A stretch of 64,000 bases of DNA from Octopus sinensis (taxonomy: Eukaryota), in contig NC_043003.1 in assembly GCF_006345805.1 (NCBI RefSeq), positions 102,610,001 to 102,674,000 on the forward strand. The letters are read 5' to 3'. Shown here in pieces: positions 13,498-33,742 of the stretch. The number at the start of each line of letters is the position of its first letter. Position 1 is the stretch's first letter. A program made the position numbers and the translations under genes. A model generated the notes under the pieces. That model was not told the origin of the DNA. It did not search any database and saw only the letters and a list, made by a program, of their open reading frames with translations.

Positions 13498-13741
13498 AGA
13501 AATATTAAAATTACTAAGTCTCTCTAAAAGAGATCACGGCAGCGTTCCTGGAAAATAATAGTTATCGCCATACTAATATGGCATTCTTATAAAAGTAAGA
13601 ATAAAGCTGTCCGCTTATTATATGGATACAGTTTGTGTATCAAATAGCTAACTTAAGGCGATGGCCTCATGGAGCTAATAAGCGGACAGCTTTATTCTTA
13701 TTTTTATAAGAATGCCATATTAGTATGGCGATAACTATTAT
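13498..13741. repeat. Structured (TA)n-flanked element with fold-back (arms ~13555-13620 and ~13676-13741)
   Basis: Near-perfect inverted arms atagttatcgccatactaatatggcattctta...; homologous to 32226-32599. Confidence 0.8.
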
Positions 13742-13764
13742 ATATATATATATATATATATATG

Positions 13765-14150
13765 CTCTTATTTGTTTCCATTATTTGACTGCAGCTATGC
13801 TGGAGCACCACCTTTTAGTTGAAGAAATTGACCCCAGAACTTATTCATTGTAAGCCTGGTACTTATTCTGGTGGTCTCTTTTGCCAAACCACTAGGTTAT
13901 GGGTATGTAAACACACCAACATCAGTTGTCAAGCAATGGTGGGGGGACAAACACAGAAAGACTCACGCATAAATATATACATGTATATATACGACAGGCT
14001 TCTTTCAGTTTCTGTCTCCAAAATCCACTCACAAGGCTTTGGTCAACCTGAGGCTATAGTATAGGACACTTGCTCAAGGTGCTATACAGTGGGACTGAAC
14101 CTGGAATCATGGGATTAGGAAGCAAGCTTCTTACCACACAACCACGCCTG
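13765..14150 (-). mobile_element. CORE-type tRNA SINE family B (OR2-like)
   Basis: tRNA head, accttgagcaagtgtc CORE-like block, internal microsatellite, gctccagcat...cagtcaaat tail. Confidence 0.8.
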
Positions 14151-14224
14151 CACTTTCGGTTGGTGAGGAAATGGTGGGGAAATGGGGATGATATATAATA
14201 TATATATATATATATATGTAAGTG

Positions 14225-14610
14225 TTGCCTGGTGGTAAGAAGCTTGCTTCCCAACCATATGGTTCCGGTTTCAGTCCCACTGCGTGGCACCTTGTGCGAG
14301 TGGCTTCTGCTATAGCCTCAGGCCAACCAAAGCCTTTTGAATGGATATGATAGGTGAGAATTGAAAGAAGCCTGTCATTTATATATATATATATGTGGTA
14401 TATTTGTGAGTCTGTGTTTACTCCCACCATCGCATCACAACAATGTTGGTGTGTGTTTACATCCACGTAACCTAGCAGTTCGGTAAAAAAGACTGATAGA
14501 ATAAGTTCTAGGCTTACAAAGAATAAGTCCTGGGGTCAGTTTGTTTGACTAAAGGTGGTGCTCCAGCATGACCGCAGTCGAATGACTGAAACAAGTAAAA
14601 GAATAAAAGA
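14225..14610 (+). mobile_element. SINE family B
   Basis: Same modules, divergent head-to-head with previous copy. Confidence 0.8.
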
Positions 14611-14973
14611 ACGTATATATATATATATATATATATATATATATATATATATATACATATATATATAAATATATTCCAAAGTAAGCACATAAAAGTGAAT
14701 TAAGGTGGCAAAAAATAGTACTCGAATGCTAGAGGTAGAGTAATATGCTTTATTAATAAAGCTGCAAAAACATCACAAAAACTGTTACTCAGAGTTTCCC
14801 GTTCACATTCATCGGACAGATTTGGTTGATTCTCAACCAAAACTGTCCAATGAACTGGGCAGTTTTATTAATAAAGTATATATAATATATATAGTTAATC
14901 CAAACATGAAAACACAACAACATGAAGACGTGGAACAAGTATAGTGTTATTAAACGCTCAGGAAAGAAGGAGA

Positions 14974-15008
14974 ATTTAACGTTTCGAGCGGAGCTCTTCA
15001 TCAGAAAC
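14974..15008 (-). ncRNA. Minimal hammerhead motif within ~200-bp repeat (14893-15090)
   Basis: GUUU-CUGAUGA-A-GAGCuccGCUC-GAAA-CGUU^-AAAU; palindromic ACGU stem III. Confidence 0.7.
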
Positions 15009-15419
15009 ATAGAAAAGGAAAGATCCAAGGAAGGGAAGACGGAGGAAACAAAACGCCAACGGTACACAAGCAGTCACATTTTGAATCACTTATATATATA
15101 TACAGAAAGAGAGAGAGAGAGATGGAGAGAGAGAAAGACAGACAGAAACAGAGTTAACAACTTTCCCTGTATATCTTTGAGCTGCAGAAGAAAGATTACT
15201 GATCCAGTTTCTGTTGTGGTGGTCTACATTTACAGCTGTTGCTACACAGACCACTCTTGAAAATAAACACTTTACATACGCCCTCTCTAAGCATCTTTCA
15301 CATGCATGCATACATACATACATGGATATAAAAATTCTTACATACATATGCTTGTATGTATGAGTATATATGTATGCATGTGTATATATATATATATATA
15401 TATATATATATATATATAT

Positions 15420-30310: not shown

Positions 30311-30429
30311 GTAGTTTCTCAACAACAATTTTTTGCGGTGTCATATGAAAATGTCCGTTATTTATGACATATTTCACATCAGTTACATTCGTATGAATAA
30401 AAGATTATCGTTATTAAACTTTTATTAAT

Positions 30430-31800
30430 AAACACATAATCTAAGTTCACAACATATGCAGTTTTAATTTCCCTCTCTGTTGCACAGATACACACATTAC
30501 ATAATATCTATTCGTTTAAGAATACAAAGAATACATTCAGCTTTGTTAACATCCACTGGGCAGCTAATTTCCACAATTGTACCCAGTTTCTCTTTCCACG
30601 ACTATACACAGGTACTTTTCTCTGTCCCAAATCATTATATCAGGTCTGTTGTGCTTACATTTTATTGAGGTCTTCACAGGGACATTCCGCCAATACTCCT
30701 TAGTGACTATGACTTCTACCCATACTGTGGGTTCTTATTTCTTTGTCCACAGGTTTATCCTTCCGACAGATTTCATCACAGAGTGTGCTAGCTACAACAT
30801 CATGTCTCATCGGTAGGTACCACCGTGATGACATTTTCGGACAGTGGGTGATACCTTCGGTGTTAACTTCACAAAGTCTGCATCGATTATCACATTTTAC
30901 TGCTGTTCCTGCATCTTTATCCCTTTCGTGCATCAGGTATTTGGTTGATATTTCCTGTTCCTAGATTGCAAATGCATGCCCTTCAAAGTGGGAGGTAGTA
31001 ATCCGGCTATTGCTCCATGATAGACTGCTTTTGATGATCGATGTTACTATCATCACGGAACTTTCTAGTAACATATACATGCATAGTCTTCTGCTCATAT
31101 AGGCTCATCCTTGCATCTGATGATACGTTGCAGTAGAGTCGTGCGACTTGTTTGAACATGTATCGGACAAGGTTATCGGACAATATCAATGTTGTTCAAG
31201 GAGCTGCCTTCCAAGTCTTATGATGTCGTCAGCCTCATGTCTGCAAACTTGGTCAAGGGATGCACTTCGACACTTTGTTGTTAAAAGATGTTGCTGAAGG
31301 GATATGACACGATATTCAAAGGCATTTTGGATCAATGTTAAGCCTCTGCTGTCTTTATTTTGTTTTAGGTAGTGGCGGTCAACGTCACTATTTATGTGGA
31401 AATTATATGTGTTTGCTAGTATTTTGCGGGCTTTCACATCAATGGCTCGGATCTCATCAAGTGTCCAATCAAGCAGCCTAAATGTTGGTATGAGTGCTGG
31501 CACTGCAGATACATTGTGGGCCACTGTTTTATTGAATGTAAAGAGTGCTGAGGTCCAAATTTTCTTTATTCGGCTGTAAAATTCTTTTGTAACACGTGTT
31601 TTGTTACAGGAGCCATTGTAAGATATGTCTTCATCCACCACCAGATACCTGTAACGTTCTTCGATAGAGGAAAAACAGTCAAATCATTGATGGAGATGTT
31701 GCTAGTCTAGTTTATAGTTTTACCCTTTTTCACAACCATTTAACATTTATCCTGACCAAACCCCAACCCTACATCCTTTGAGAATGTTGTAACTATGTCT
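30430..31800 (-). mobile_element. R4/Dong-type (restriction-like endonuclease) non-LTR remnant
   Basis: TFSKDVGLGFGQDKC, YRYL, LDWTLDEIRAIDVKARKIL..FHINSDVDR.Y..RGL, CRLC..ITH.CPK..RHDVVA, HNRPDIMIWD. Confidence 0.8.
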
Positions 31801-32225
31801 GTCTGTCTATATGTATGTATGTAGTATGTATGTATGTATGTATGTATGTACAGATACTTGCTTGTATGCTACAGCATATTTATGGATATATATTAGTATA
31901 TCTATATTTGCAGGATGGGAGGAGGGTTCTCCATCGGTTTACGCGATGAGCATTTACTAGTAATTTGATCACCTGGATTCCTTAGTCGTGCTGTTAATAT
32001 CTAAAGTGGTGATACGTGGACTCATTTTATGTAATCCTCAGAGAGAAAGAGGGAACTGAACCCGGAATCATGTAGTTGAGAAGCAGACTTCGTTATAACA
32101 CGGCCATCCCTGTGCTTATATATATATATAATATATATATATATATATAATATATATATATATAGTGGTGGTGTGTGTGTGTGTGTGTGTGTGTGTGTGT
32201 GTGTGTGAAGAGAGAGAGAGAGGAG

Positions 32226-32599
32226 AGAAATATTAATATTTCTAAATCTCTCTATTGGAGACTACGGCAACAGTACTGGATATTAATAGTTATCGCCAAG
32301 CTAACATGGCAGTCCAGGAAAAATAGGACGAATGCTGCCGTTGATTAGCTCCAAGAGGCCATCGCCTCTAGCTAGCCATGTGACACGCGAACCTGTGTCC
32401 ATTATAACCTTCGAACAGGGGAGGTCAGCAGCTTTCCCTTCCTGGTTCGGAAGCTGCTGACTTCCCCTGTTCGAAGGTTGCAATGGACACAGGTTTGTGT
32501 GTCACGTAGCTAGCTCCAGGCGTTGGCCTCTTGGAGCTAATCAACGGCAGCATTCGTCCTATTTTTCCTGGACTGCCATGTTAGCTTGGCGATAACTAT
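32226..32599. repeat. Structured element forming ~150-bp-arm fold-back (32286-32599)
   Basis: Long inverted arms; homologous to 13498-13741 and 33440-33650. Confidence 0.85.
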
Positions 32600-33430
32600 G
32601 TGGCTGTGTGGTAAGTAGCTTGCTTACCAACCACATGGTTCCGGGTTCATTACCACTGCTTGACACCTTGGGCAAGTGTCTTCTACGATAGCCTTAGGCC
32701 GACCAAAGTCTTGTGAGTGGATTTGGTAGACGGAAACTGAAAGAATCCTGTCGTATATATGTTTACATATATATAAATATGTATATGTGTGTATATGTTT
32801 GTGTGTCTGTGTTTGCCCCCCCCCCCCCAACATCGCTTGACAACCGATGGTGGCGTGTGTACGTCCCCGTAACATAGCAGTTCGGCAAAAGAGACCGATA
32901 GAATAAGTACTAGGCTTCTTAAGAATAAGTCCTGGGGTTGATTTGCTCGACCAAAGGTGGTGCTCCAGCATAGCCGCAGTCAAATGGCTGAAACAAGTAA
33001 AAGAGAAAAAAAATAAAAGATAGGCGCAGGAGTGGCTGTGTGGTAAGTAGCTTGTATACCAGCCACATGGTTCCGGGTTCAGTCCCACTGCGTGGCACCT
33101 TCGGCAAGTGTCTTCTACTATAACCTAGGGCCGACCAAAGCCTTGTGGGTGGATTTGGTAGACGGAAACTGAAAGAAGCCCGTCGTATGTATGTATATAT
33201 ATGCGTGTGTGTGTTTGTGTGTCTGTGTTTGTTCCCCTAGCATTGCCTGACAACCGATGCTGGTGTGTTTATGTCCCTGTTACTTAGCGGTTCGGCAAAA
33301 GAGACTGATAGAATAAGTACTGGGCTTACAAAAGAATAAGTCCCGGGGTCGAGTTGCTCGATTAAAGGCGGTGCTCCAGCATGGCCGCAGTCAAATGACT
33401 GAAACAAGTAAAAGAGTAAAAAGAGTAAAG
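32599..33430 (+). mobile_element. Two tandem SINE family B copies (32599-33010, 33022-33430)
   Basis: Near-consensus head, CORE-like block and tail twice. Confidence 0.88.
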
Positions 33431-33593
33431 AGTAATATATATTTGCCAACTAAAAGTGACGGCCCCATAGAGGATAATGTTACTGTTGTTTTAGCTCCAT
33501 GAAGACTTCTCCTCCAGCTGGCTAACGACACACTGTCTGTGCCCGATTAGTATTTGCGAAGGGAGGTCATCGCTCCCATGTCTAGCCTTACGT

Positions 33594-33645
33594 GTTATCA
33601 CAGACCCGGATTTCTGGTAGTTACCCGTCTTCAGGGTGTGATAAC
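33594..33645 (-). ncRNA. Type I hammerhead motif
   Basis: GUUAUCACAcc-CUGAAGA-cgGGUaacuACCa-GAAA-UCCGG-GUC^-UGUGAUAAC; 9-bp stem I, near-palindromic stem III. Confidence 0.7.
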
Positions 33646-33742
33646 CACCAGCCACACACACAAACACATATATATGGTGAGAGAGAGAGAGAAAGAAGAA
33701 GAAGAAGAAGAAGAAGAAGAAGAAGAAGAAGAAGAAGAAGAA

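Follow-up and report, generated by a model that had tools for sequence, protein, structure and literature searches.

Copies of a 360-nt repeat in the window

The window, a stretch of 64,000 nucleotides of Octopus sinensis DNA, contains three elements which are copies of an abundant non-coding repeat of about 360 nt that carries a hammerhead motif and a multi-stem fold. A preliminary description had grouped them by a common layout of stems, and this layout was borne out by nhmmer: a single profile, made from five actual monomers, matched all three stretches (E 1e-19 to 1e-49) and identifies them as homologous. They are members of three different families. The features in the window are:

8122..8163, minus strand: tail-only fragment in a (TA)n tract (blastn match 8131-8157, 27 nt, 92.6%, E 1e-5)
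13498..13621, minus strand: family 1 copy, direct arm with tail (nhmmer E 8e-19, profile 111-230)
13616..13741, plus strand: family 1 copy, inverted 5' arm (nhmmer E 1e-23, profile 50-172)
19392..19464, plus strand: decayed superfamily fragment (nhmmer E 9e-5, profile 114-184)
32226..32452, minus strand (the RNA sense): family 2 copy, direct arm (nhmmer E 8e-49, profile 7-230)
32447..32599, plus strand: family 2 copy, inverted 5' arm (nhmmer E 1e-28, profile 21-169)
33426..33583, minus strand: family 3 copy, one-armed, structured domain (nhmmer E 5e-34, profile 18-178)
33594..33652, minus strand: family 3 hammerhead remnant (read from the sequence; nhmmer profile 308-358, E 1.7e-4)
57893..57980, plus strand: decayed superfamily fragment (nhmmer E 4e-8, profile 85-173)

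The direct arm of the family 2 copy, which is 90-94% identical to other genomic copies, starts just past the hammerhead cleavage site, takes in the structured domain and finishes with the tail, whose end reads agaaatattaatatttct on the plus strand at 32226. Its inverted arm stops at an internal priming site, ...ggcgataactat, and the copy as a whole is an inverted repeat (32286-32434 / 32451-32599, 149 nt, 93%). The family 1 copy sits inside a (TA)n tract and is also an inverted repeat (13555-13620 / 13676-13741, 66 nt, 98%); its inverted arm reaches as far as the internal priming site (...gataactatta), with (TA)n beyond it. Over 13621-13745, 40 or more genomic copies match it at 100% identity. 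Both copies are long DNA palindromes, on which the preliminary description was silent, because they are two-armed insertions made of a 3' part and an inverted 5' copy. They were truncated before reaching the hammerhead and do not contain it. The family 3 copy, 83-89% identical to other copies, runs as far as the internal priming site, which in the RNA sense reads ttggcaaatatat. A similar terminus had also been noted at 8131; here the tail match holds in blastn but reaches only E 1.2 in nhmmer, and this weakly matching fragment is likely a severely 5'-truncated insertion.

At least five families of the unit exist in the genome, with pairwise monomer identities of 48-78% and homology that spans the whole unit. 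First-look searches of the 2.72-Gb assembly returned 1,087-2,927 candidates per family, of which only 40 per family were scored; all 40 matched each time. Between successive cleavage sites the unit measures 352-363 nt (monomers in families 1, 3, 4 and 5). Units lie head-to-tail in tandem arrays with this same period (TRF: period 362 x 3.0 copies, 98%; the family 2 tandem junctions were noticed by reading loci), and the majority of sampled loci are single, one-armed or two-armed insertions. The unit has a GC content of 0.41 and is without a poly(A) or LINE-like 3' tail. No ORF longer than 53 aa was present inside the two units checked, and the loci read showed no long terminal direct repeats besides the unit itself.

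Hammerhead motif and fold of the body

All five families carry a type I hammerhead motif, located on the minus strand of the window and predicted to act as a ribozyme. In an alignment of 20 copies from the five families, 95.4% of the hammerhead cells pair, compared with 24-57% in slid controls, and two-sided changes occurred in 7 of 12 pairs. Conservation extends to the core, to helices I and II and to A15.1-U16.1. Stem III consists of 1 bp in every family and is capped by a loop (CGCG, CTAG, CCCGGG, CTATAG or CTCGAG) that is palindromic without exception. The C3-G8 position is occupied by CG (8 copies), UA (7) or UG (5), and cores of the U3-A8 or U3-G8 type occur in three families; the cores recorded by family were TTGAAAA (25/27), TTGACGA (18/21), CTGATGA (26/30) and CTGAAGA (13/24). 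Rfam Hammerhead_1 matched family 5 with 28.4 bits (E 0.0019), below its gathering score of 34, and no Rfam hammerhead match was returned for families 1-4 at E<=1.

The preliminary description had placed a hammerhead in the third copy on the minus strand, with the structured part 3' of it, and a hammerhead-like motif does lie there (33645-33594). Stem I is formed by 33645-33637 with 33602-33594, the core CTGAAGA (33634-33628) is followed by GAAA, the loop TCCGGG and TC, and cleavage is predicted between 33603 and 33602. This motif is decayed, with mismatches beside the core and in stem II, and gave no Rfam hammerhead match at E<=10. To regard only one of the three elements as hammerhead-linked was nevertheless too narrow, given the motif in all five families and the truncation of the palindromic copies.

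Support for a conserved, covarying fold in the region from hammerhead to tail comes from an alignment of 20 copies of five lineages from a single genome, the tested structure being derived from these same sequences. In this body 91.2% of cells pair (35-44% in slid controls), both partners were altered in 12 of 35 pairs, and the covariation score was 0.286 against <=0.10 in controls. Six body helices stay paired through two-sided changes. In the family 2 direct arm the helices are located as follows:

32382..32399, minus strand: helix Sa, gacac/gtgtc (columns 63-68/75-80)
32346..32374, minus strand: helix Sb (read from sequence and alignment)
32346-32350 / 32370-32374, minus strand: outer part of Sb, tagct/agcta (91.0% of cells pair)
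32354-32359 / 32364-32369, minus strand: inner part of Sb, agaggc/gcctct (91.7% of cells pair)
32266-32271 with 32334-32339, minus strand: long-range helix Sf (columns 122-131/195-203)
32312-32315 / 32326-32329, minus strand: hairpin Sc (read from sequence)
32295-32298 / 32307-32310, minus strand: hairpin Sd (read from sequence)

Two of the four stem sets proposed initially withstood the wider alignment. In the gacac/gtgtc stem (Sa) 96.7% of cells pair and 2 pairs show two-sided changes; the gaggc/gcctc stem (inner Sb) shows them in 4 of 6 pairs and has a loop of constantly 4 nt. The proposed compensatory difference in the inner hairpin was also found, with GUCC/GGAC in family 2 and UUCUUAU/AUAAGAA in family 1. 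By contrast, 63% of cells pair in ctaa/ttag, which has no two-sided change, and 69% in ggcag/ctgcc, which has one; the three versions listed for the latter do not constitute covariation because they occupy different alignment columns. Both are replaced by the long-range helix Sf (92.5% of cells pair, 4 pairs changed on both sides), which surrounds hairpins Sc and Sd and the internal priming site (32266..32339). Independent folding of families 1 and 5, which are 51% identical, led to the same architecture.

Across the 64-kb window no Rfam 15 family reached its gathering score, HDV-like, twister, pistol and riboswitch models included, in line with the earlier failure to match HDV, twister or pistol. 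At E<=10 or E<=1 the hits comprised sub-threshold miRNA-hairpin models on palindromes and microsatellites, plus Hammerhead_1, and nothing else. The suggestion of an undescribed structured RNA survives as far as a covarying fold is concerned that has no Rfam match besides the hammerhead. The structure is, however, the non-ribozyme body of a hammerhead-bearing repeat of about 360 nt and not a free-standing new RNA class.

Insertion anatomy and mode of spread

Insertions were analysed in 150 clusters, and since the loci had been fetched with the structured domain as query, the truncation spectrum is conditional on that query. Seventy-nine were two-armed, always tail-out, 71 were one-armed and none was head-out. 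The 3'-type ends (229 in total) concentrate at two fixed, A/U-rich sites separated by about 55 nt, 92 at profile positions 160-179 and 115 at 210-249; 5'-type ends are scattered, and the 71 one-armed insertions are 5'-truncated. In 60 of the 79 two-armed insertions one end lies at the internal site and the other at the tail site about 55 nt beyond. The palindrome turn point differs among copies. Flanks were TA-rich in 73 of 150 clusters, and reading of loci placed family 1 nearly always in (TA)n. A shared flank word of at least 8 nt was present in 38 of 95 clusters (19% in mismatched controls). Target duplications are variable, about 8-17 nt or more, with clean examples of 10-13 nt at non-TA sites.

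It is likely that the repeats of the three families, with their hammerhead on the minus strand, were inserted by a Penelope-like reverse transcriptase that copied their RNA starting from the two fixed A/U-rich sites. Tandem copies would be transcribed, and the unit RNA would then cleave itself in dimeric form, by way of the palindromic stem-III loops, and probably become a circle of about 360 nt. The branched fold is predicted to stabilise this RNA and would keep the A/U-rich internal start site unpaired within a loop, which in family 1 is the one that helix Sf closes. Where A/T-rich DNA is broken with a stagger, its two 3' ends could anneal to the exposed start site, both priming cDNA on one endless template, and the two cDNAs would be joined at a variable point. 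Such joining may have produced the palindromes 13498-13741 and 32226-32599 with their tail of about 55 nt on one side only, and the one-armed copy 33426-33652 would represent a single-primed, 5'-truncated product.

Across the 150 loci no reverse transcriptase or GIY-YIG frame was consistently adjacent, and as neither ORF lies in or consistently beside the units, the element is at most a non-autonomous derivative. GIY-YIG Penelope ORFs abound in the genome (5,029 first-look candidates, open frames of up to 883 aa, several intact). An autonomous partner was not found among the Penelope-like loci sampled: beyond incidental neighbouring insertions, the units shared no sequence with 30 GIY-YIG loci, nor with five intact Penelope-like ORF loci (762-883 aa). 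In the single Penelope tail that was inspected, the hammerhead is followed by only about 85 nt, with no such structured domain; one Penelope-like element has a hammerhead core of the same U3-A8 type.

Other modes of mobilisation fit parts of these data. If the retroposed non-coding RNA were moved by another enzyme, for instance a LINE-type (non-LTR) reverse transcriptase, and its Penelope likeness were convergent, this would agree with the missing Penelope-like element of matching tail and with the LINE-type reverse transcriptase fragments that are frequent near copies and within the window. LINE-1 elements also generate 5' inversions through twin priming, and variable-length duplications suit any target-primed mechanism. 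We consider this unlikely, as partial tandems, a tail-out inverted 5' copy, a one-sided tail, (TA)n sites and a hammerhead with palindromic stem III together make up a Penelope signature in the published descriptions (PMC8557442, PMC4209133); the intact GIY-YIG frames, the shared U3-A8 core type and the lack of a LINE-like 3' end point the same way. Far less probable, and largely refuted, are foldback or MITE-type DNA transposons in which the hairpins are terminal inverted repeats and the internal stems incidental. The near-perfect palindromes of copies 1 and 2, the target duplications flanking many copies and the miRNA-like hairpin scores of the palindromes are what would recommend them, yet the turn points vary by copy, the ends are unequal, nearly half of the insertions (71/150) are one-armed with scattered 5' truncations, tandem arrays exist, duplication length is not fixed and every family has a hammerhead. 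Examined for membership in that class, the repeat has neither equal terminal inverted repeats nor duplications of one length, and a 5' truncation series is present.

A different question is whether the stems act in the hammerhead-sense RNA at all, and not in its complement, be it antisense RNA or first-strand cDNA, or as a reflection of some sequence constraint, for instance protein-binding sites or internal promoters. Watson-Crick covariation is strand-symmetric, wobble cells are almost equally G-U (33) and A-C (27), which leaves the strand unsettled, and several helices (Sd, Sg) are without any covariation. Antisense folds also beat shuffles, at -109.7 kcal/mol (z -5.5) for family 1 and -112.6 kcal/mol (z -4.8) for family 5, but the sense folds, at -128.8 kcal/mol (z -7.2) and -123.3 kcal/mol (z -5.9), are more stable by 19 and 11 kcal/mol. 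Moreover, G-U pairs fixed at the level of families (95/106, 96/105) lie within helices, A-C cells mostly at helix ends, and pure sequence constraint does not explain pair 93/108, which occurs as UA, AU and GC. The minus strand is also indicated as RNA sense by the hammerhead and by the direction in which copies are 5'-truncated, and action in the other strand or mere sequence constraint seems improbable.

Relation to known hammerhead-bearing elements

Viroid-like and plant LTR-retrozyme RNAs are small, circular, non-coding and hammerhead-bearing and have a compact branched or quasi-rod fold; dimer-dependent cleavage would spare their monomeric circle. The octopus unit is predicted to resemble them as a small non-coding RNA with a hammerhead, a compact fold and cleavage that depends on dimers. 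It differs in that its hammerhead is of type I and not type III, in having no LTRs and apparently no PBS or PPT, and in being DNA-encoded at thousands of loci.

Penelope-like insertions are described as partial tandems with an inverted 5'-truncated copy, a one-sided tail of 30-40 bp and a (TA)n bias, the pLTRs carrying hammerheads (Craig et al., 2021, PMC8557442). The octopus unit shares with the endonuclease-bearing elements of that account the partial tandems and the inverted 5'-truncated copy at the 5' side, together with the tail at one end, the (TA)n preference, variable target duplications and hammerheads built for dimer action. Unlike them it is only about 360 nt long, lacks a reverse transcriptase or GIY-YIG ORF, has a longer tail (about 55 nt) and has no sequence in common with those Penelope-like loci of the octopus genome that were sampled. 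Compared with the min-HHR described for Penelope elements (PMC4209133), helix III is present, as 1 bp with a loop of 4-6 nt; covariation to a U3-A8 core was reported earlier in that work for Schistosoma elements (Cervera and de la Pena, 2014).

A close likeness is to the metazoan non-LTR retrozymes as Cervera and de la Pena (2020, PMC7229834) describe them: short non-coding units (150-450 bp by their definition) of low GC, found both dispersed and in tandem arrays, whose type I hammerhead has helices I, II and III of 6, 4 and 1 bp and a palindromic loop on helix III, together with target duplications of more than 4 bp, RNAs predicted to be highly self-paired and a proposed dependence on Penelope-like elements. 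Retrozymes have since been presented as PLE derivatives (Li, Clavereau and Pollet, 2026, bioRxiv 10.64898/2026.07.22.740005). Circular RNA and self-cleavage belong to the retrozyme description, whereas for the octopus unit both are predicted; most of its sampled copies are, unlike retrozymes, insertions of one or two arms whose 3' ends fall at two fixed sites, and U3-A8 or U3-G8 cores are present in three of its families. Judged by these features, the repeat is of the retrozyme or non-autonomous Penelope kind, an already known type of animal mobile element. The co-existence of five families in one genome makes a covariation test of the non-ribozyme body of such an element possible.

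Related copies in the window and across the genome

The three stretches that the preliminary description had considered akin are indeed matched by one and the same nhmmer profile, which derives from five real monomers (E 1e-19 to 1e-49). They are copies of a non-coding repeat of about 360 nt, whose assigned RNA sense is the window minus strand, and stand for three families; the profile also picks up decayed pieces.

Copies and fragments of the repeat superfamily in the window
13498–13741: copy 1 (family 1), DNA palindrome, arms of 66 nt, 98% complementary
32226–32599: copy 2 (family 2), DNA palindrome, arms of 149 nt, 93% complementary
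33426–33652: copy 3 (family 3), single arm
57893–57980: decayed piece of the same superfamily, nhmmer profile match
19392–19464: decayed piece of the same superfamily, nhmmer profile match
8122–8163: tail-only scrap, weak match

In profile coordinates, both palindromic copies turn before the hammerhead is reached. The window's own hammerhead (33645–33594) is decayed, with mismatches adjoining the core and within helix II. Comparison with Rfam, as the preliminary description had proposed, returned 0 matches at gathering score across the whole window, and no hammerhead for the decayed copy at E≤10. The matches at lax thresholds were to sub-threshold miRNA-hairpin models only, on palindromes and microsatellites.

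Other repeats lie close by. At 33759–33875, adjoining an (AGA)n tract, a hairpin with about 42 bp of nearly perfect pairing scores 63 bits with the mir-580 model on both strands, short of the gathering score of 83, and has the look of a foldback repeat with no relation to the retrozyme. The interval between copies 2 and 3 contains two copies (32600–33000 and 33035–33420) of another repeat, about 390 nt long. It starts ggctgtgtggtaagtagcttg..., recurs beside microsatellites in many fetched loci and by eye looks like a SINE. At 36343–38048 (plus strand), reverse transcriptase is split over two adjoining open frames (225 and 356 aa; RVT_1 E 1.6e-20 in the second), which marks a frame-broken retroelement, probably LINE-type since no GIY-YIG match was found there. 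A weaker RVT_1 fragment lies at 10234–10905 (minus strand).

Searches of the 2.72 Gb genome with each window copy returned 2,117, 2,041 and 1,087 first-look candidates, of which 40 were scored per search and 40/40 matched. Copies are 90–94% identical in family 2 and 83–89% in family 3. In family 1, at least 40 genomic copies match the window copy without a single difference (100% over 125 nt), so this family looks, from its sequences, to have been active very recently; nearly all of the family 1 loci fetched (L061–L090) lie within (TA)n tracts. Two further families were found beside fetched loci, family 4 (2,927 candidates, identity 95–99%) and family 5 (2,155 candidates, 97–100%). Counted between successive predicted cleavage sites, monomers are 352–363 nt long, and those of the different families can be aligned over their full length at 48–78% identity. 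Tandem arrays are present (TRF: period 362, 3.0 copies, 98% matches). The units have a GC content of 0.41 and contain no ORF longer than 53 aa.

Hammerhead motif and body fold

A hammerhead motif is present in every family, in the sense of the window minus strand. Its order is one 6-bp helix I half, the core heptamer, a 4-bp helix II, GAAA, a loop of 4–6 nt, UC and the other helix I half. In an alignment of four copies per family, 95.4% of cells pair, against 24–57% with slid partners, and 7 of 12 pairs are changed on both sides. Families 5 and 3 have the core CUGAUGA or CUGAAGA, families 1 and 2 have UUGAAAA or UUGAUAA, and family 4 has UUGACGA, so that the C3-G8 pair positions hold CG (8), UA (7) or UG (5). 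Covariation at this position has already been published for Penelope-like elements of Schistosoma (PMC4209133). The stem-III loops CGCG, CUAG, CCCGGG, CUAUAG and CUCGAG are palindromes in 5/5 cases, and with the flanking A and U each forms a palindrome of 6–8 nt. A palindromic loop of this design was described by Cervera and de la Pena in type I hammerheads of metazoans that act as dimers (PMC4209133). The Rfam model Hammerhead_1 detects family 5 only (28.4 bits, E 0.0019; gathering score 34), and no Rfam hammerhead was returned at E≤1 in the family 1–4 loci searched.

Family 5 (L126–L155) comprises two sub-lineages by stem-III loop, CTCGAG (n = 10) and CTCGGG (13/30), the latter keeping its self-pairing through G-U. 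In many of its copies helix II begins with T or A in place of G.

RNAalifold applied to 73 unique, partly decayed copies gave hardly any structure, and this set was replaced by the four copies per family nearest to the family column majority (pools of 19, 9, 7, 23 and 9 unique near-full copies). On the resulting 20-copy alignment (A1), RNAalifold predicted 27 pairs, 10 of them changed on both sides. A six-helix structure, set by hand and derived from the same sequences, was then tested on A1.

Helices of the body, between hammerhead and tail (A1 columns)
63–68/75–80: Sa
84–88/112–116: Sb-outer
93–98/103–108: Sb-inner
155–159/166–170: Sd
122–131/195–203: Sf
208–211/217–220: Sg

The paired cells of this structure reach 91.2%, against 35–44% with slid partners; 12/35 pairs are changed on both sides and the covariation score is 0.286 (≤0.10 slid), counts that represent five lineages of one genome, with cells as sequences and not events. 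At the family level, pair 93/108 occurs as UA, AU and GC; pairs 98/103, 88/112, 125/200 and 128/198 switch between the groups of families 1–2 and 3–5; and pair 130/196 is GC apart from family 4 and 1/4 of the family 3 rows, where it is AU. Sd and Sg show no covariation in A1. A further inner hairpin, Sc, is formed by unrelated sequences (UUCUUAU/AUAAGAA, GUCC/GGAC, ACCC/GGGU) and is not clear in family 4, which has a poly-C tract of variable length. In that family (L156–L185) the tract occupies the Sc loop (A1 columns 134–146), its length depending on the copy.

Two of the stems read in the preliminary description hold, gacac/gtgtc as Sa and gaggc/gcctc as Sb-inner. Two others are not retained as conserved helices: for ctaa/ttag 63% of cells pair, with 0 pairs changed on both sides, and for ggcag/ctgcc 69%, with 1 such pair; the three supposed versions of the latter are located in different alignment columns. 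The 5′ strand of the latter does not form a local stem; it pairs instead with a distal strand near the tail to form Sf, GGCAGC with GCUGCC (in other families CAGUAAC or CAGUAGC with GUUACUG or GCUACUG).

Monomers of families 1 and 5, which are 51% identical, were folded separately and gave the same predicted architecture. The sequence that follows the cleavage site pairs with the one preceding the hammerhead in a long closing rod; the branched centre carries Sa, Sb and Sf, of which Sf encloses Sc and Sd, and Sg comes next; hammerhead helices I and II are retained. In the predicted fold of family 1 the internal start site lies within an unpaired stretch of 23 nt closed by Sf.

Predicted folding energies of whole monomers
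Family 1: sense −128.8 kcal/mol (z −7.2); antisense −109.7 kcal/mol (z −5.5)
Family 5: sense −123.3 kcal/mol (z −5.9); antisense −112.6 kcal/mol (z −4.8)

Wobble counts, nearly equal on the two strands (G-U 33 cells, A-C 27 cells), do not decide between them; the strand was assigned from the hammerhead, the truncation polarity and the energy difference. In contigs of four runs (X1, X2, X4 and X5; RNA type guessed), pieces of the unit are joined to flanking DNA.

Insertion anatomy and Penelope-like elements

Profile matches in the fetched loci, with 16 overlapping loci and the window itself left out, gave 150 insertions, a sample conditional on the presence of the domain used as the query. Two-armed insertions, consisting of a 3′ part and an inverted 5′ copy, number 79/150, and both of their outer ends are of the RNA-3′ type; 71/150 are one-armed and 0/150 head-out. 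The 229 3′-type ends concentrate at profile positions 160–179 (92) and 210–249 (115), and the 5′-type ends of the 150 insertions are scattered along the profile. One internal and one tail end, A/U-rich and about 55 nt apart, are combined in 60/79 two-armed insertions, which hence carry about 55 extra bases on one side only. In family 1 the word CTATTAT is, by reading, common to both 3′ end sites. Ten apparent cases of 5′ ends at the hammerhead cleavage site were discarded as an artefact of the profile start, 10/10 continuing into a partial hammerhead.

A TA-rich flank accompanies 73/150 insertions. Among those with non-simple flanks, 38/95 share a flank word of at least 8 nt across the insertion, compared with 19% for mismatched flanks, and clean duplications of 10–13 nt occur at non-TA target sites. 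The published signature of endonuclease-bearing Penelope-like elements comprises partial tandems, an inverted 5′-truncated copy and a one-sided tail, together with (TA)n preference and hammerheads (PMC8557442). We infer that the two 3′ ends of a staggered break would both prime on a single RNA, tandem or circular, and that the resulting pair of cDNAs would subsequently be joined.

Animal retrozymes have been proposed to be non-autonomous derivatives of Penelope-like elements (bioRxiv 10.64898/2026.07.22.740005; PMC7229834). For GIY-YIG the genome search yielded 5,029 first-look candidates, whose open frames reach 883 aa. In one intact Penelope-like element (L121:5163–5205 and L123, minus strand) a hammerhead lies about 570 nt downstream of the 780-aa ORF; its core is of the U3-A8 type (TTGATAA), its helix II has 5 bp and its loop is the palindrome CATG, and only about 85 nt separate it from the (TA)n insertion end. 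By blastn and nhmmer the units share no sequence with any of 30 GIY-YIG loci or of five intact Penelope-like loci, the only matches being incidental neighbouring insertions (L107, L117, L124). Nor was a consistent neighbour found among open frames of at least 180 aa around 150 loci.

Nature of the repeat and implications

The repeat is hammerhead retrozyme-like and belongs to a known kind; it is probably mobilised by Penelope-like elements. The structure claimed in the preliminary description is real, but it is the body of such a repeat and not a separate RNA class. For annotation this means that the hairpins should be classed neither as MITEs nor as miRNA precursors, and that most hammerheads of these families are missed by Rfam.

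A bolder reading, which we put forward tentatively and consider rather improbable, is that Sa, Sb, Sc, Sd and Sf constitute a cis-acting module recognised by a Penelope-like reverse transcriptase. It would expose an A/U-rich start site within an open loop, which would let both ends of the staggered break prime on one circular RNA. If true, trans-mobilisation by Penelope-like elements would thereby gain its first defined RNA recognition element, and a live test system would be at hand in the family with at least 40 identical copies. The families bear on how Penelope-like enzymes choose and copy their template and on what makes their insertions tandem and inverted, with a tail on one side; an in vitro system for these elements has been called for by Craig et al. 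2021 (PMC8557442). In the genome of Octopus sinensis one small non-coding passenger co-exists as five families, some of them very young, which have in common the hammerhead, two fixed start sites and a compensated fold. They form a compact set of natural ‘mutants’ for testing which RNA features cleavage, circle formation and mobilisation would require.
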